A stretch of 54,160 bases of DNA from a virus (Duplodnaviria > Heunggongvirae > Uroviricota > Caudoviricetes). The stretch lies in the IMG/VR virus record IMGVR_UViG_3300029305_003293, positions 1-54,160 of that record. One strand, given 5' to 3'. The translations under genes and the position numbers were made by a program. A model generated the notes under the pieces. That model saw only the letters and a program-made list of their open reading frames with translations, was not told the origin of the DNA and ran no database searches. Positions 2-46,710 of the stretch are shown here, piece after piece (the stretch's first letter is position 1; every line of letters starts with the position of its first letter).

Positions 2-2731
2 GGAAAAGAATTAGATAAATTAGAAAAAGCTAAAAATAGGGCTTATGGTGCTAAATATACTGATTTAATAGATCAAGAAACTGCGGCGCTGAAAAAAGAA
101 ATTGAAGCTTAGCGTGAATTGCAAAAAGAAGCAAAAGGATATATTAATTCAGATGGTTCTTAGTTAAAAAGCTTGGGTGCAATTATTGATGAAAATGGTG
201 TTATCGCGAATTATGAAGAATTAATGCAAAATTGGATAGATGATTATAATGCTGCGATTGAAAAATGGAATAATAGTGAGCAAGAAGAATCAGATCAAGA
301 TAAATTAGATGAAGCAGAGTAGCTATTTGAGGACAGAAAAAAATTAATTGAAGATTATGAAGAAGCTTTAGACAAATATGCGGATGCTCAAATTGCTATT
401 GAAGAAAATATTAATTAGATTTCAGAAAATACTCTTGAAGGTATTACCTATAAACTTGAACTTGAACTTGAAGTAAACGAACGAGATATTGAATTATTAG
501 AATATTATTAGAGTAAATATGAAGAAGCATTAAATAATTAGGATGATTTATTTAATACTTTGATGTAGCAAGCTTCAAATTATGAAAGTAATTTTATTGC
601 TTTACAAGAAGCTTATGATAATTTATTATATGAATATAGTCAACGAACTGAATTTGATGGATTGCAAGATGTGCATTTCGCAGAAGGTCTTGAAGAATTA
701 CATGAGCAAATGCTTGAAAATCTTTCAAATCTTGAAGATATTAAAGATCAAATTACTGAAATTTATGCCGAGACATTAGATTTAGCCGCGGAAGAAATTG
801 AAAATGCCACAGAATCTTTAGAACATATGAATGAGACTATGGAATCTTATATTAGTATTATGGGGTTGGCTGGTCGTGAAACAGATTTTAAAGCATTACA
901 AGCATTTTATGATGCACAGTATACAAATAATTTAAAGCGTTTAGAAATTCAAACAAAACATTTAGAAGAATTAAGAAAACAAGAAGCCGTATTCAGACAA
1001 AAAATTGAAGAAGATGGTCAATTAACTGAAATTGAAAAAGAACAATATCAAGCTTTAATGGAACATATTCGAGAAACTGAATCTACTATTGCTTCTACTA
1101 CAGAAGAAACATTAGATACTTTAAGAGCTGGTTATGAGAATACCATTAATGGTATTATGAAAGATCTTGATGATTTTATGGCCGGTGCCGCCGATTCTAT
1201 TTCTCAATTACAAGAACAATATGGATTCTTCCAAGAGGAGCAAAGTCGTTATGTTTCTACCGCAAAAGAATTATATGAAGTATCTCAATTGAATAGAGAT
1301 ATTGAATTGACTCTTGCTGAAACAACTTCTGAAGCCTCAAAAGAAGCATTAAAAGCTTTACAAGAAAAAATTAATAAACAAAGTGAATTAAATGAATTAA
1401 CTGAATATGATATTGAAATGAATAAATTGCAATATCAATTATTACTCGCTAGAATTCAATTAGAAGAAGCGCAAAATTCTAAAGATACTGTACGACTTAC
1501 TCGTGATGATAATGGCAACTATGCTTATCAATATACCGCAGATGAAGACAAAGTTGCCGAAGCAATGCAAAAATATGAAGATTATTTACAACAAATTAAT
1601 GATCTTACTACCGAAAGAGTATCTGAACTTGAACAATAGTTTATTAACTTAATGCAAGAAGAGCAAGATCGTATTAATGAAATTGCTTTAGATACTACTT
1701 TAACAGAGCAATAGAAGTATGATCGCATGCTAGAAATTCAATCTTATTATGCAACGCAAAGATTGTATATACAAGAACAAGCAGATATTGCGAGTTAGAA
1801 TTTATTAACTAATCAAGAAGCTATTGCTGATCATTACGGAGTTAATATTACAACAATTACTGCATCTACCGCGGGAAATGTTAATGCTAATATTCAAAGT
1901 ATGATTGCAGAAGCTGAGCGCTATAATGATGCAATGTATGAGGCATTATTTGGTCCAGATGGAATTGCGAATGCATTATCTGATTACGGTCAAGCAATTA
2001 GTGCCATTACATCTGCGAGCGGAACTTCATATGGAAGTATGATTGAAAACATGCAAAATATGGGCGAAATAAATAATGAAGCATTACAATCTGCGATTGA
2101 AACAATTGAAACGTTAGGAGATACTCTTGATCCTATTAATGATATGACCAATGCATGGAATGCTCATAATGAAACCCTCCAACAAACAATAGCATATTAT
2201 GAACAATTGGCTAATAAAATCAATATTGATTTAGCTGATTTAGGAGATGTTAATGCGATTGCAGGAGCAGGAAGAAATGCTTATGCAGATCTTGATACTG
2301 CGCAGTTAACAGATGAAATTAAACATGATATTGATGTTGAAAACATGACAGAAAAAGAAATTACCAAGCAATATTTGGCTCGTATGTATGATGAAAATCT
2401 TACTACCGCAGAACGCTTAAAATTAATTGCTGAATATGAAGAATCTTTAATGAAAGCTGCGGCGAAAAACGAAGAAGAAAGTTATGGTCGTCAAGGCGTA
2501 TCCTTAAATGTATCTAATGGTTTGATTGATTATCTTGCTGGTTTAACACAAATGCAGATGTCATATTATGATCGTTACGATCATTCAGTAAAAGATAGAC
2601 CTTCTTAGACTCTTGATCAAAATGTATCAATTCAGGTAGAATTCCCGAATGTAACTAGTCAAGAAGATATTATTGAAGCGTTTAATAGCTTAATTAACCA
2701 AGCGGCACAACTTGCCAGCGTAAGAAAATAA
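2..2731 (+). CDS. Tape measure protein, C-terminal part (5' partial; TAG=Gln)
   Basis: One frame is open from base 2 to TAA at 2729-2731 when TAG is read through, joining ORFs 662-1639 and 1901-2608. It is E/Q/L/A-rich coiled coil and ends TLDQNVSIQVEFPNV...AFNSLINQAAQ, an ending typical of tape measure proteins. It lies upstream of the tail genes. Confidence 0.8.
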
Positions 2732-2739
2732 TGATATAA

Positions 2740-2770
2740 TAATGGGGAAGAGGAATACTCTTCCCCATTA
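2740..2770 (+). terminator. Hairpin after the tape measure gene
   Basis: 13-bp stem TAATGGGGAAGAG/CTCTTCCCCATTA with a 5-nt loop; the downstream T-tract is weak. Confidence 0.6.
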
Positions 2771-2853
2771 TGTTTATTTGGGTGAAAATAAATAATATTT
2801 ATAAAAAAATCTTTATGATGATATAGAGTAATGAGGAAAAGGAGTGAGTCATA

Positions 2854-5800
2854 TTGGCTGATCAAAAAGGTTCATTGGCTACTGCAATATCTGATGGTAT
2901 TTTGGGTAGTCTAGAAACATATTACTCCAAGATGATGGAAAAAAATCAATATGATATTACTGTAGATGCGGTCATTACAAATATAGATAATAAGCTTGAT
3001 GGTATTTACAGAGTAAAAACTGATGGCGCAGAATTTGATGCATATGCATCTTCTGGATCTTATTACAAGGATGATCAAGTCTTAGTCCAAATTCCGAATG
3101 GTAATTATGGAAATTAGAAATTTATTTTAGGCAGAAAAGTTGATGAAGATATTGCCAATCAAGTTTTTAATTTTAAACTGCCTTTTGATGATTTTATTCC
3201 ATTACAACATTTGGATAAAGATCATGAGCCTCGTAGTGGAGCTCATTGGGCCAATTATCCAGGATTTGCAAGAGAAAATTTACCAACTGGTCGAATTGAT
3301 GAAAATGGAGTTGCGATAATAGAAAATCCAACATTAGTTTGGAAATGGGTTAATTCTGGTCAAAGTACAATTGGTAATACTAAATTAGGCATTCAAGCTG
3401 ATTGGTAGACAATGCTTGGAATGTATCAACCTCTTAGAGGAACATATGGTTTTAGAATTATAACTAAAGGAACAACTAGTGCTACTGAAACTGATGCTTC
3501 AGTAGAGAGAGTCCAAGAAGATTATTTTACTAATAGAGATATGTATGGTAATACATATGCATTTTATGTTCCTTATTCTCAGCAAAAAGTAATTGATATT
3601 AGTGAATTTTTAGAAATTCATTCTGTTGAAATTCATTTTTATCAAGATTATAATTTTGCAGATAGTAATAATGTATATATTTCATATGAAGAAACAGATG
3701 CAGATGGAAAGCCATTAGTTCCTGAAAATATTTTATTTAATTCAATTGATGTATTTTTAGGTGTAAGTAATCAAGATTTATCAGAAGAAACTGCGTTATT
3801 ATATTCTTATGATCCATTAAGTTATACTGGTATAGAACATCTTCCAGAAGTCGCAGGAGAGGTTTCAACTTGGACCTGCAATGATATTAGAACTTTATAG
3901 TTTGTATGGATTCATAAAGAAGCAAATAAAACTTTTACAGTTATTGATGATATAAATGAATTACTTGCTCAAGGAGAAGCATCTGGTAAAGATACTCATG
4001 TTTATTGGTATCGTCGCGATTATGATGATGAAATTGTTGGAACGCAAGAATCATTATTCCCTGGTCAAAAATATATTATAAATGAAAATGGTCAATATGA
4101 GCCGGCCTTTGAAGAAGAAAGTGGATTACCATTATTTGATTCTGAGGTTCCTCGTGCAAAAGAATATAGAGAATTATTTTTAGATCTAAAAGATGCTGAA
4201 AATAATATTAATTATCAATCTCGTATTACTCGCTATGGAGGAGAAGGATGGACTTTTATTCCTGCGGCGACAGATAAATTTGTTTATGCAGTAAATCCTC
4301 GCGGTAACAAGAGTAGAGAAAAATTTAAAGTTGTAGTATAGCATCATGGTACTCATACAACAAGTGAAGAATTAATTTTAAATAATACAAGAGATGTAGA
4401 GGCAGAATATGCTTATGGCGCTCGTAATGATGCAATTATTATTCAAACATATAAAATAATAAAAACAAGAGATAGTAATGATGAATGGACTGGTGAATAT
4501 CACGCGAAACCAGATAATTCAATGAATGCATTTCATGTTTATGATGAGAATAATAAAATTCTTTATAATGATGATGATGAAAGATACGATGATCATTTTT
4601 ATTATTTGCAAGTACGGGCAAGAAATGAAGAAACATATGAGTATGAAACACTTCCTACGGTTACAGAAAATGGTTTAAGCACAGGAACAGTAATTTCATG
4701 GGCTATGCCTCATGATTATACTATGATTAAATCTTCTTTAGAAGTAACCAAAGAAGATGCAAAATTATTTGGTATTGATCCAGAAAATGAACCAGTACGA
4801 TATGATAATTTTCATAATGCTACAATTAAATTTTAGATTAGTGAAATATTAAATAATAGATATTAGAATAATACTGTTAATGCGGTTATTACAAAAAATA
4901 ATAAAACGCATCATATTGAAAAGGCGTTAAATTTTGGACGCGCAGAAGGCCAAGGACATGAATTTGTTCCTATTATAGAAATTATTGAACCCGCAGGTGG
5001 AACCTATATTTGTCAAGGTGAACATTTTTAGTTAGGTGTTGCAGTTTATAATAGAGATGGCTCTTTATTTGAAAATCCTGCTTTATTGTCTTTTTCTTGG
5101 AAAGAGCTTGGTGGACAAAGTACATTCTGTAATTATGGTACTAAAAATGAATTGGAAGAATCTCAAGATGGATATTTGATTGGGAATTATTATTTTACAG
5201 AAGATACTTTTGATCCTGAATTTGATTAGAAATATAAAGGATATTCTAATAATGTCGTTAGAGGATATTTGATAAATGAATACCCGCCAATTTTTGAAGT
5301 GACTATTTATGGAGCTGGGGATTATCCTTTAGTAGCTCGTTTCGCGCCAATGATATGTAATAATTATCAATATAAACAATAGCGAGACATTATGGTTCCA
5401 TCCAGAGTAGAATTTAAATCAGATGGCACTAATCCAATTTATTACAATGAATATTTTATGATAGATGTATTAACGATTGGTGCGGATTAGATTGCTGTTC
5501 ATCAGGCAGAATGGCCAGAATGGCATTTAAATGAAAATGGTAAAAAATTATTTTATTTAGACTCTACTACAGTGAAACAAAATATGGTTGCTTCGCATGA
5601 AGATGGAACGACAGCGCCTCAAGAATGGGAATATACAAAATATCGTTTGCGTTCTAATGCAATTTTTACTGATGATTTAGGCAATAAAATTGATAGATTG
5701 CAATGGACTGAAAAACTTTTAAAGCCAGAATATTATAGCTATATTTATTATACTACTGAAGATAATATTTATATCGCTTAGGCTTTAGCATTTGACCGCA

Positions 5801-37613: not shown

Positions 37614-38417
37614 TTGGCACTCTTTAAAATTTATAAGGGACCTGCTTCTAATCTTGGAAAAGCAGGTAATGTAACACAATATGCGCAAGAAGGTTTTGCA
37701 TATTTTACTTAGGATGATGGTAAATTTTATATTGATGTTGCTGGTGATGGAACCACTGAAGCAGTATTAGGAAATAATCGTTTACCATTAAACGCAGAAT
37801 AGGCAGATAAAGATTCTGCGGGTAATGTAATTAATGAAACTTATGTTACTATTGATTTAAATGATTCTGAACAAGGAAATCCTTCTGGCGTTAATGCAGA
37901 TACTCTAGGTGGAGTCTTAGCTTCTGATTATGCTTTAAAATCAGACTTAGACAATTTAACTGGATCAAATATAGATTTAAGTAATTATGTTACAAGAACT
38001 GAATTGGAAGAATATGTTCCAGATATTGATTTAACTGAATATTATACTAAAACCGAAACTGATGATAAATATGCTTTAAAATCAGATATTCAGTCTGGCG
38101 CAGTAAGATTAGATTTTACTGTTTCTTTACCAGCTTCGGGATGGAGTAATACTTCTCCTTATTCTCAATCAGTAACAGTTTCTGGCATTAGCGAAACTGA
38201 TTGGCCGCAAATGAGTCAAGATTTGTCTATGGCGACGGATGATACCGTTGATGATTTAGAAAAGAATTATGCTTATATTAAGTATGGTGAAGCAACCTTA
38301 GATACAATTACTTTTTATTGTTTAAAAGGTAAACCTACTGTTGATTTAACTTTGATTGGTCAAGTTCTCAGGGGGGGGGCTTCTAATTATGAAAGTGCGA
38401 TTGGAGTTGAATTTTAA
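37614..38417 (+). CDS. Accessory tail fibre protein (267 aa) with an in-frame G9 tract near its 3' end
   Basis: TTG start after AAGGAG; in frame with ORF 38004 through TAGs. Contains NADTLGGVLASDYALK and a C-terminal VSLPASGWS...PYSQ domain. Confidence 0.7.
38371..38379 (+). repeat. G9 homopolymer tract (in frame)
   Basis: Nine consecutive G directly in the sequence. Confidence 0.95.
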
Positions 38418-41413: not shown

Positions 41414-42599
41414 ATGGCATTTTTAAAGCCTTAGAATCCCCATTAAAAAAGGTGAGGATTTTGTTTATCCTCTTACTACCGTTGATTAGATTATTTTAGA
41501 TGATAATTCTAGATTAAATTCTAAAATGGTAACGGTAGATTTAGATACTGAAAATGATGAAGTTTCAGAACTTCCCACAAGAGATGCGGAAACACTTGGC
41601 GGTATTCCTGCTAGTGAATATGCTTTAAAAGAAAATATTCCATCTCTTGAACCCTATGCATTAAAGATTGATACTGCTCCTGATTCTGCGATGCTGGGCG
41701 GCAAGGCCCCGGAATATTACATTTAGCCAAAAAATTTGCTGGACAACTCGGATTTCACGAACCCGGTGTGTTAGAGGGGTACAGATGTTCTTACATCCGC
41801 AGTTTCTGGCTATAAACTGGATCGATGGAAGCAAAATACAGGTGCAACAAATCTTGAACTATTATCCAACGGCGTTAAAATTACTAATACCAATGCTGGA
41901 AATGGTGCGTTCATGCTGTAGCAGATAGTAAAGTAGCCGCAGCGATTTGCAAATAAAGCATTAACGCTTGCTTTAAAAGTAAATGAAGTATCCAGCACAA
42001 ATGGGGTGTATGCACATGCGTTTATCGGATTTGTGTATGGAACTAGAGTATATACAAGCACTATTACAGCGCCAGGAATCTATATTGCCGTTCTAGAGCC
42101 ACAGAGCATAATGGATGACCTGACTGTTTGTGTTCGTCAAAATGGTGCAAGCACAGATGCAACGAACACAATAACCATCGAATGGATTGCCCTATACGAG
42201 GGTGCGTACACAATTGACACCCTACCGCCATATGTACCGAAGGAAAAAAATGCGGAATTGGATGCATGTCATGAACAACTGTATTATTTTGACTAGCTTT
42301 ATCAATTTATTGGTTCTGGATTTATAGCAATAGATGGAAACTACGCCCTTATATCTCTTCCAGTCCCTTATCTTAACGCAGACGCAAGGCCGACTGTGAT
42401 AGGAAATGTTCACATTGCAATTCCTACAGCAGCATTCGATGCTGCTCCAACTACATCTACTTTTTCAGCGGAACTCGCTAGCGATGGTTGGATTAGATTG
42501 CAATGTACGTTTGACACAACAGACACAACGATTGCTGGACAGCCTTGTGCTATTACAATCAGATCTGGCGATTTTCTACAAATCAGCCGCGAATTATAA
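41414..42599 (+). CDS. Tail fibre/receptor-binding protein, out of frame at CCCC 41438-41441
   Basis: ATG 41414 with GGAGG gives MAFLKPQNPH then TAA. Removing one C gives KPQNPIKKGEDFVYPLTTVDQII, matching the N-terminus of the paralogue at 43090 (KPQSPL...VFPLTTYDQVI). The body contains NLLDNSDFTNPVCQRG. Confidence 0.7.
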
Positions 42600-44478: not shown

Positions 44479-44970
44479 ATGGTTGGATCAAAAGAATTAT
44501 ATGATATTTTTGAAGTAATTTATCCAGTCGGAATTATTATTGAGCTTGCTACCGACGCCAATCCTAAAGATTTATTTGGGATTGGCGAATGGGAGTAGAT
44601 TAAAGATAGGTTTATTTTAGCGGCTGGAGAATCTCATAATCTTGACGAAACAGGCGGGTATTCTGAAACTCAATTAACTGTTTCTCATATGCCTTCTCAC
44701 ACACATGGAACTGGAAAAACTTCTTCAGCGAGTACTTATCCAGAATATTATTTTACAGTGAATAGAAGTACTTCTACATCTGCAGTTGGAAGAATGGGAT
44801 TGGCTTCTGGTTCATCATATTACGCAATGGGAACTAATACTAGCGCTTCTGACTCTATAGGTATTGATGATATTATTCAAATATCTAAAACTGGTGCGAC
44901 AGGAGAAGGTAAAGCCTTCTCCAATATGCCACCTTATTATGTCGCCTATATGTGGAAGAGGGTGGCGTAA
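44479..44970 (+). CDS. Baseplate/fibre protein with a T4 gp10 C-terminal-like domain (163 aa)
   Basis: IYPVG...NP...FG.GEWEQIKDRFILAAG...MPSHTH...NMPPYYVAYMWKRVA; joined to ORF 44689 through one TAG. Confidence 0.75.
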
Positions 44971-45569
44971 TTGAAAGGTATATTAACCGCCCCCCTATTC
45001 AAATTTTAAGTAAATCTGGTTCTACAATTTCTTTATCTGGACCAGGTTTACCAACTTAGACAATAACAGATAATAATACCACTTATAATGTAGCAACAGC
45101 ATCAGTCAATGGATTGTTAAGCGCTGATGATAAAGTTGCTCTTGACAAATTGAAAGAAGAATCTCCATATTTTTTAACTTATTATACTACAACTACTGGG
45201 GATACTGAAATAAGTGGAACAACAGTAGTAAAATTTAATGTAAAAGTTAGAGATACACATAATTCTTATGATACATCAACTGGTAAGTATACTGTCCCAA
45301 TAGCTGGAATATATTTATTTAATTTTAATTATTATACAAATAATAATACAACAGGAGGCTCTTATCGTCCTTGTATTCATATCGATGGAGGAGACTCGAG
45401 TGCAACTGTGCAAATGAGCTCTATGGCACCTGGCAGTATCTCAGTAATCGCCAGAATGCCAGAAGGAGCAACTGCCTATGTTGGTCCTTATTCTTCTAGT
45501 TATAAAATGGCTTTTTATGCAGGATTTTTACATACTAGTTTTAGTGGTACATTATTATCTTATATTTAA
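44971..45569 (+). CDS. C1q-like-domain tail protein, out of frame at C6 44990-44995
   Basis: TTG at 44971 after GAGGGTGG stops at TAA 45007-45009. One extra C gives MKGILTAPPIQILSK... in frame with the C1q-like body (SYDTSTGKYTVPIAGIYLFNF). Confidence 0.65.
44990..44995 (+). repeat. C6 homopolymer tract
   Basis: ACCG-CCCCCC-TATT, about 7 codons after the start. Confidence 0.9.
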
Positions 45570-45590
45570 TATAAAGGGAATGATTTATTT

Positions 45591-45949
45591 ATGATAGGCA
45601 TTGCAGCCCCCCCCTGTTAAATAAAATATTAGAAATTAATTCTTTATATAATAAATTAAATAATGAAAAAGCAATTACTTTTGAACAAGAAATTGTAATT
45701 GAAACTACTGACTGGAATGATACTGCTCCTTATATTTGCACTAAAGAAATGGATGGAGTTATTCTTGGAGATAAGCCTTTTGTAGATATTAATTTGGATT
45801 ATTATTCTACATTAGATGAAAAATTATCAGCAAAAGAGAATTGGATATATGTAGATGATATTTCAGGAGGAATGAATAATGTTATTTTTACTTGTTTAGA
45901 AAATAAACCTGAAGTAACATTATCTATTTCTTGTAAGGTGGTGCATTAA
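45591..45949 (+). CDS. Accessory tail protein, out of frame at C8 45607-45614
   Basis: ATG 45591 gives MIGIAAPPC then TAA. C6 or C9 would give an open frame containing EIVIETTDWNDTAPY...FTCLENKPEVTL, homologous to the C-terminal domain of 37614. The body frame has no ATG/GTG/TTG between TGA 45581 and the tract. Confidence 0.7.
45607..45614 (+). repeat. C8 homopolymer tract
   Basis: GCAG-CCCCCCCC-TGTTAA. Confidence 0.95.
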
Positions 45950-45951
45950 TA

Positions 45952-46710
45952 ATGAGTGGTTTTATTACTCGTCGTGGCGGAGGAAGTAATTTAAAAATTA
46001 TTCAAGCAACTTCATTACCATCAAAAGGAAAAGATGGACAATTAATTATTATTAGCTCTATTCCAATTAATAATATTACTTATAATACAACAACAACTAA
46101 ACCAAGCAATCCTGTAAATGGAGATCTTTTTATTTGTTTTGGGATATCTGATTATCATAAAGTATTACAATATACAACAACAAACTCTTGGAATAGCGTA
46201 GATAGTTATGTGTGGATCAATAGTAGTTGGATTTAGTTTACTCGTAAATCTTTAGTAATTTTTGATGGAATTTTACATGATTCTTATTCAACTTTACAAG
46301 TAAGAAAAGGTTCTGGTGGTTCATCAGGATATTGGAAAGTAACTTCTTCAGTCTTAAAATTATATGCTCCTGCAGCGACAGAGTCTTGCTAGTTAGGTAG
46401 TTTTTCTAATAAAATTGATACTGGAGCTTGGTCAACTTGTTCTGTTAAAGCTACGGTGCGAGGATGGAATGGTGGTTGGTGGGGTTTTGCGCCGGCTTTT
46501 GCTTCTGTGGGAATATTATCTTCTAATTATACCACTGGATATACAAAAATTCAAAGACCAACTACTACATCCAATTCATCTGTCACAGGAATTTATAATA
46601 TTGATGTTAGCAGTTTAACCGGGACTTACGATTTAGTATTTGGTATTGCAGGATCGGGAGGGTCTAATTATACAGGAGAATTTAATATTAGTTCTATTAT
46701 TTTAACTTAA
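45952..46710 (+). CDS. Receptor-binding-type tail protein (252 aa, two TAG)
   Basis: MSGFITRRGGGS start; ORFs 45952 and 46456 are in frame; Ser/Thr/Gly beta-rich C-terminus. Confidence 0.7.

Follow-up and report, generated by a model that had tools for sequence, protein, structure and literature searches.

The closest described system is that of the Campylobacter Fletchervirus phages, whose receptor-binding genes, among others, contain hypermutable polyG tracts (Sorensen et al. 2021, Cell Rep 35:109214, cited in PMC10877375). As far as that citation conveys it, the system combines G/C homopolymers in fibre or receptor-binding ORFs with an AT-rich genome and several tracts per phage, features that recur in the phage described here, and changes in tract length shift the reading frame and give rise to mixed progeny, as we propose below. 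In contrast to the Fletchervirus phages, the present one is an uncultured, 173-kb phage with TAG recoded to glutamine and a lysin of Gram-positive type, and its switching at a C8 tract is something that we infer. Moreover, the tract considered here lies in an N-terminal leader motif of 8 to 9 residues that is shared by small accessory fibres.

Other systems offer partial parallels. In phages T2 and T4, short homopolymers within ORFs behave as contingency loci, undergoing reversible frameshifts by polymerase slippage, which has been read as bet-hedging; these are mostly A/T runs of at least 6 nucleotides, spread over many classes of gene, and coliphage tail fibres have fewer homopolymers than expected (Gomez, Barrick and Waters, bioRxiv 10.1101/2025.10.21.683753), whereas the rare G/C runs reported here are concentrated in fibre genes. 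The poly-C/G contingency genes of Campylobacter, Helicobacter and Neisseria have their tract near the 5' end of the ORF (PMC8355987, PMC2831843). Likewise, the present tract is found a few codons after the start, in a position where an indel of one nucleotide toggles the frame, and it runs against the codon bias of the genome; however, the carrier is a virus, so that switching would occur per burst rather than per cell lineage. The -1 frameshift of the lambda G/GT genes also belongs to a phage tail module, and formally a homopolymeric heptamer could support a -1 shift here. In lambda, the shift takes place near the 3' end of the upstream ORF, yields two products, uses A/T-rich heptamers and is conserved in its site across phages, while here the zero-frame product would be a 9-residue peptide, relatives have a sister gene in frame and a stimulatory structure is lacking.

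The window, by which we mean the whole stretch of 54,160 nucleotides that was analysed, corresponds to the first 54 kb of an IMG/VR phage record of 173,283 bp with a completeness rating of 97%. When TAG is read as a sense codon, plus-strand ORFs cover 17,464 codons instead of 11,988, and fragments merge into ORFs as long as 2461 codons, from which we conclude that this phage decodes TAG as glutamine. The C8 locus is part of a tail-fibre module of about 37.6-46.7 kb, whose genes match PHROG tail-fibre and tail families, Gp10_C, the C1q domain and a Gly-rich domain, and carry strong ribosome-binding sites of the GGAG type 6-10 nt before their starts. The SpoIID/NlpC-P60/SH3 lysin encoded 3' of the module indicates that the host is probably a Gram-positive bacterium. 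Neither DNA nor protein searches matched the phage to any GenBank phage, and exact-pattern scans with the flanks of the C8 run retrieved nothing from viral_contigs or metagenome_contigs. Locus scans seeded with proteins (the body of the C8 gene, the downstream gene, the lysin, a baseplate-region gene and an alignment of the C1q gene) found no close relative, their sole match being a locus, L003, with a fibre at 31% identity.

The C8 tract and the gene that it interrupts

The sequence ATG ATA GGC ATT GCA GCC CCC CCC TGT TAA, at 45591-45620, opens a frame that is closed immediately after the C run (Table 1). The initial annotation had proposed that this run puts a tail-domain gene out of frame six codons after its start and that C9 or C6 would restore it, and both statements agree with the sequence and its frames: the product of a C9 allele would be MIGIAAPP followed by 111 residues, 119 aa in total, and that of a C6 allele 118 aa. 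The frame of the body, -1 relative to ATG 45591, is open from 45584 to a TAA at 45947-45949. The run thus lies inside an ORF where a length change of one nucleotide shifts the frame. It had also been stated that the body shares homology with the C-terminal domain of the gene at 37614-38417 and has no conventional start of its own 5' of the conserved domain. Indeed, BLASTP aligns the two with an E value of 7e-8, and the first ATG, GTG or TTG in the body frame is ATG 45749, about 26 codons inside the region of homology. This ATG, at which gene callers begin, has no Shine-Dalgarno site upstream of it and corresponds to residue 46 of the structural model discussed below, so that initiation there would forfeit a helix and two strands; for these reasons we do not regard it as a plausible true start.

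Table 1. Features of the C8 locus and of related fibre genes, in window coordinates
Feature	Position	Strand	Remarks
Paralogue with the same tip domain	37614..38417	+	In-frame G9 run 38371-38379 where the domain ends
Third frameshifted fibre gene	41414..42599	+	ATG 41414, MAFLKPQNP; C4 run 41438-41441; body in +1 frame
Sister locus, C1q-domain fibre gene (Pfam C1q; listed as 44952-45569)	44971..45569	+	OFF; C7 would be ON
Shine-Dalgarno-like AAAGGGA	45573..45579	+	11 nt before ATG 45591
Leader frame MIGIAAPPC(stop)	45591..45620	+	True 5' end of the gene; TAA 45618-45620 in the C8 state
C8 homopolymer, proposed slippage tract	45607..45614	+	In frame if C9 or C6
Gene body, -1 frame	45614..45949	+	111 codons and stop; neck helix and beta-sandwich fibre-tip domain
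Internal ATG of gene callers (66-aa product P0003)	45749..45751	+	Not a plausible true start

Several lines of evidence bear on the coding status of the body. In the body frame, the 45 codons that precede ATG 45749 have a score of 0.98 bit per codon, to be compared with a mean of 0.93 for true genes and -1.47 for off-frame sequence. In this genome, chance would leave 111 consecutive codons open in an off frame with a probability of about 3e-5, which argues that the frameshift is the only lesion of the body. A profile built from three sequences retrieved 3370 proteins with the tip domain among 1.84 billion searched, the gene's own fragment being recovered at 4.5e-27. The domain is C-terminal in all 3370 members, with KVVR as the usual ending, and some members are stand-alone proteins of 100-130 aa; W34, P55 and P99, which are invariant in the family, are kept in the body. 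An AlphaFold2 model of the body, calculated from an alignment of 68 sequences, reaches a pLDDT of 95.8 and consists of a helix (residues 2-17) and a beta-sandwich. We conclude that the body encodes a genuine tail-fibre tip domain that folds well, and that it is coding 5' of ATG 45749.

No Pfam or PHROGs model matches the body. A structure search with the model gave weak best matches (Z 4.2-4.8, below the level that shows kinship) to the C-terminal beta-sandwiches of phage receptor-binding proteins and tailspikes, a pyocin fibre and a snail lectin; these predicted resemblances fit a fibre tip and prove nothing. The family that comprises the body (45614-45949) and the paralogue's domain (38061-38417) has over 3000 proteins, no Pfam or PHROG model and, with a best Z of 4.8, no clear solved structure. 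In L003 (positions 2410-3699), which belongs to a distant relative, a tip-domain gene is followed by a Gly-rich gene that starts with MGDCYVVRRGGG, mirroring the MSGFITRRGGG found at 45952 of the window, an arrangement that suggests that the two genes form a conserved unit.

The run is not what the codon usage of the phage would lead one to expect. In 29 structural genes, CCC makes up 14 of 452 proline codons (3.1%) and GCC 8.5% of alanine codons, and CCC is absent from the 9 other Pro-Pro pairs; the chance of Ala-Pro-Pro being written GCC CCC CCC is about 8e-5. Given the rarity of CCC, the C8 run is not a by-product of coding for Ala-Pro-Pro. At the scale of the whole 173,283-bp genome, only 3 G/C runs of at least 8 nucleotides are observed, where a first-order Markov model predicts about 0.6: the C8 run and two G9 runs, one at the 3' end of the tip domain in the paralogue and the other right after an ATG at 147647. 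With its rarest codons and this excess of runs, the tract appears to be kept against mutational and codon bias. A genome-wide scan for frame breaks linked to homopolymers suffered from excessive noise and was not used.

Public copies of the gene are all of one kind. The 66-aa call P0003 is present on 9 contigs from JGI, NCBI and ENA, which are perhaps not independent assemblies, and P0004, a variant with two substitutions that is also called as 66 aa, on a tenth; both alleles keep the body open. The 119-aa in-frame form was absent among 5.8 billion clustered proteins, in which these roughly 10 contigs all have 66-aa protein calls. Since the body contains no TAG, an in-frame copy would be called full length by any pipeline.

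Related tracts in neighbouring fibre genes

The gene that adjoins the C8 gene upstream, which encodes a C1q-domain fibre, has the same layout. A GAGGGTGG site precedes TTG 44971, which opens MKGILTAP and is followed by a C6 run at 44990-44995; the leader frame stops at 45009 and the body continues in the -1 frame after the run. Seven homologues of this sister gene, at 67-96% identity, all start in frame with MKGILTAPPIQIL or MLGYLAPPPIQTL. This indicates that the window's copy is one C short and that MIGIAAPP is a version of the same N-terminal motif. Indeed, the MIGIAAPP leader matches the N-termini MKGILTAPP and MLGYLAPPP of the sister homologues, and the start-anchored pattern x-G-[IYLV]-x(1,2)-[APT]-P-P is expected by chance at 0.07 matches per genome. 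From this resemblance, the leader is to be taken as the fibre gene's own N-terminus.

The 90% cluster of the sister gene contains two proteins of particular value. P0154, of 199 aa, comes from one ENA contig and starts MKGILTAPP; P0163, of 203 aa, comes from three Logan/ENA contigs and starts with MIYLNERYIDRPP, as results when that leader is read in the -1 frame. The two agree at 192 of 192 residues counted from PP, and they differ in frame before the tract. Judged by this comparison, P0154 and P0163 are the ON and OFF alleles of one strain background, differing only in run length. Identity after the tract together with different frames before it shows length variation of the sister tract at the level of DNA, and a polymorphic tract in the adjacent gene gives strong indirect support to the same reading of C8.

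Two observations concern the surroundings of these leaders. The sequence ATGATTTATTTA, at 45580-45591, just 5' of and into ATG 45591, translates to MIYL, with which the OFF allele P0163 of the neighbouring gene begins in another strain; by their sequence, the ribosome-binding region and the leader seem to form a cassette common to fibre loci. In the sister gene, a 13-bp hairpin (45010-45051; MFE -16.8 kcal/mol, z -3.6) begins 14 nt after the C6 run, within the conserved coding stretch for SKSGSTISLSGPGL, and may be a by-product of repeated Ser-Gly codons.

A third fibre gene of the module is likewise frameshifted (Table 1), its C4 run being inside the conserved N-terminal motif KPQ(S/N)PI. An in-frame form exists in relatives, as P0197, which starts with MAFLKPQNPIKKGEDFVYPLTT. 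The first ~110 residues of P0197 and of the third gene are nearly identical and the tip is swapped, for an overall identity of 50%. The ENA contig of P0154 is 12,774 bp long, and one of the P0197 contigs is likewise of 12,774 bp. Because the third site is a mere C4 against C3, too short for hypermutability, at least some of these frameshifts may be plain mutations.

Proposed slippage at C8 and its alternatives

On balance, we lean towards the view that the C8 run is a slipped-strand contingency switch, which is OFF in this genome. The run would be a slippage-prone homopolymer placed within the N-terminal motif M-x-G-I-x-x-A-P-P of a small accessory tail-fibre gene, whose full extent, from ATG 45591 to the TAA ending at 45949, would specify a 119-aa protein in which a short anchor peptide is followed by a neck helix and then by a beta-sandwich tip domain. 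Being one C below the in-frame C9, the present allele would have its translation ended after nine codons, and the fibre would not be made. Slipped-strand mispairing during phage DNA replication could then change the length of the run, so that part of the progeny would be ON and the rest OFF, and the sets of receptor-binding fibres would be mixed. The adjacent C1q-domain fibre gene would have the same device and a homologous leader. We infer the reversibility and the polymorphism of the C8 tract, as well as the benefit to the phage. The switch proposed in the initial annotation thus retains its foundation, a genuine fibre-domain gene interrupted after a start with a Shine-Dalgarno site, but in the approximately 10 contigs available the C8 gene is seen only in its OFF state. 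Also weighing on this proposal is the 12,774-bp ENA contig, in which both sister genes are ON and no 119-aa product is recorded, although the contig may not reach the C8 gene.

The uniformity of the public copies (about 10 of 10 contigs OFF, the variant allele included) is what would be expected of a young pseudogene, that is, of a redundant accessory fibre gene inactivated by an indel at a hot spot, with no meaningful back-switching and no benefit. That three fibre genes of the strain are simultaneously out of frame, one of them at a mere C4, and that the C8 gene has no close homologue outside its own cluster, also favour such an account. We nevertheless think it unlikely: the body, with full coding statistics, has kept 111 codons without any other lesion (3e-5 by chance), it is open in both alleles, which are two residues apart, and the writing of the run in the rarest codons (8e-5 expectation) argues for a run that is maintained. 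In addition, a C8 reverts at a high rate for physical reasons. A plain sequencing or assembly error in a genome that truly has C9 deserves very little credence. Homopolymers are classic sites of indel errors; however, the 66-aa product recurs on 9 contigs from JGI, NCBI and ENA and a tenth contig carries its variant allele, three independent Logan/ENA contigs have the sister gene OFF, and in this genome ORFs of 1700-2460 codons remain intact in spite of their many A/T runs, which indicates a low homopolymer error.

Absence of an in-frame copy is also what a programmed signal predicts, although the public copies are near-identical, and the initial annotation had mentioned ribosomal or transcriptional slippage as an alternative to switching in the DNA. 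In such a scheme C8 would be fixed and the DNA never in frame, and -1 ribosomal frameshifting, or transcriptional insertion of one C, on an all-C slippery site six codons after the start and without downstream structure would provide each infection with a fixed share of full-length 119-aa fibre. We hold this to be improbable. A heptamer in the right register does exist, C CCC CCC at 45608-45614 in the zero frame, atypical in being all C, with the zero-frame stop one codon later, and the C6 site of the sister gene also requires the -1 direction. To this extent the ribosomal alternative is formally possible, but folding of the region 3' of the run (45615-45700) revealed no stimulatory structure (MFE -8 kcal/mol, z -0.79 versus shuffles), and all-C heptamers are poor -1 shifters in the bacterial systems in which they have been tested. 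Also weighing against recoding are the sister gene, which is in frame in its seven homologues and lacks a slippery heptamer in its OFF form, and the third site, a C4 that needs a +1 shift, so that no single recoding rule covers all three. Decoding of a CCCC quadruplet by a frameshift-suppressor tRNA-Pro was also considered and rejected, as it fits C4 (+1), while C8 and C6 would need +2 and their second word is not CCCN. Finally, the body could be expressed from a non-canonical start in its own frame, ATT 45587 or CTG 45614. The former is just 3' of TGA 45581-45583 and, at 7 nt after AAAGGGA, is well spaced; yet starts at ATT or CTG are very rare, the M-x-G-I-x-x-A-P-P motif common to the neighbour's homologues would be missing from the product, and ATG 45591 would compete for the same ribosome-binding site. 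The chances of such an expression appear slight.

If the C8 tract does act as a slipped-strand switch, one phage genotype would give particles with different sets of accessory receptor-binding fibres, in what could be bet-hedging against variable host surfaces, with at least three genes of the module gated by C runs and two of them sharing a leader. The polyG mechanism of the Campylobacter phages would then extend to uncultured, TAG-recoded gut phages with probable Gram-positive hosts. Since gene callers truncate or miss such genes, leaving in the public record nothing other than a 66-aa stub, the fibre repertoires and host-range predictions of phages of this type are understated.

Other G runs in the genome

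The two G9 runs are also built from rare codons, GGG representing 2.6% of glycine codons and AGG 2.8% of arginine codons. In the paralogue, the run is written AGG GGG GGG GCT exactly where the tip domain ends. The tail NYxSAIGVEF that follows it is conserved in P0013, and in the other frames the conserved 14-residue tail would be replaced by 4 or 20 other residues. Near relatives of the paralogue, sought for a test of G9 polymorphism, were not found above 52% identity, and a fusion through the run into the downstream gene was rejected on account of stops in that frame. The other run, in a non-structural region of the genome outside the window (147647-147986), directly follows the initiator (ATG GGG GGG GGT), heads an open frame of about 110 codons and is a further candidate switch.
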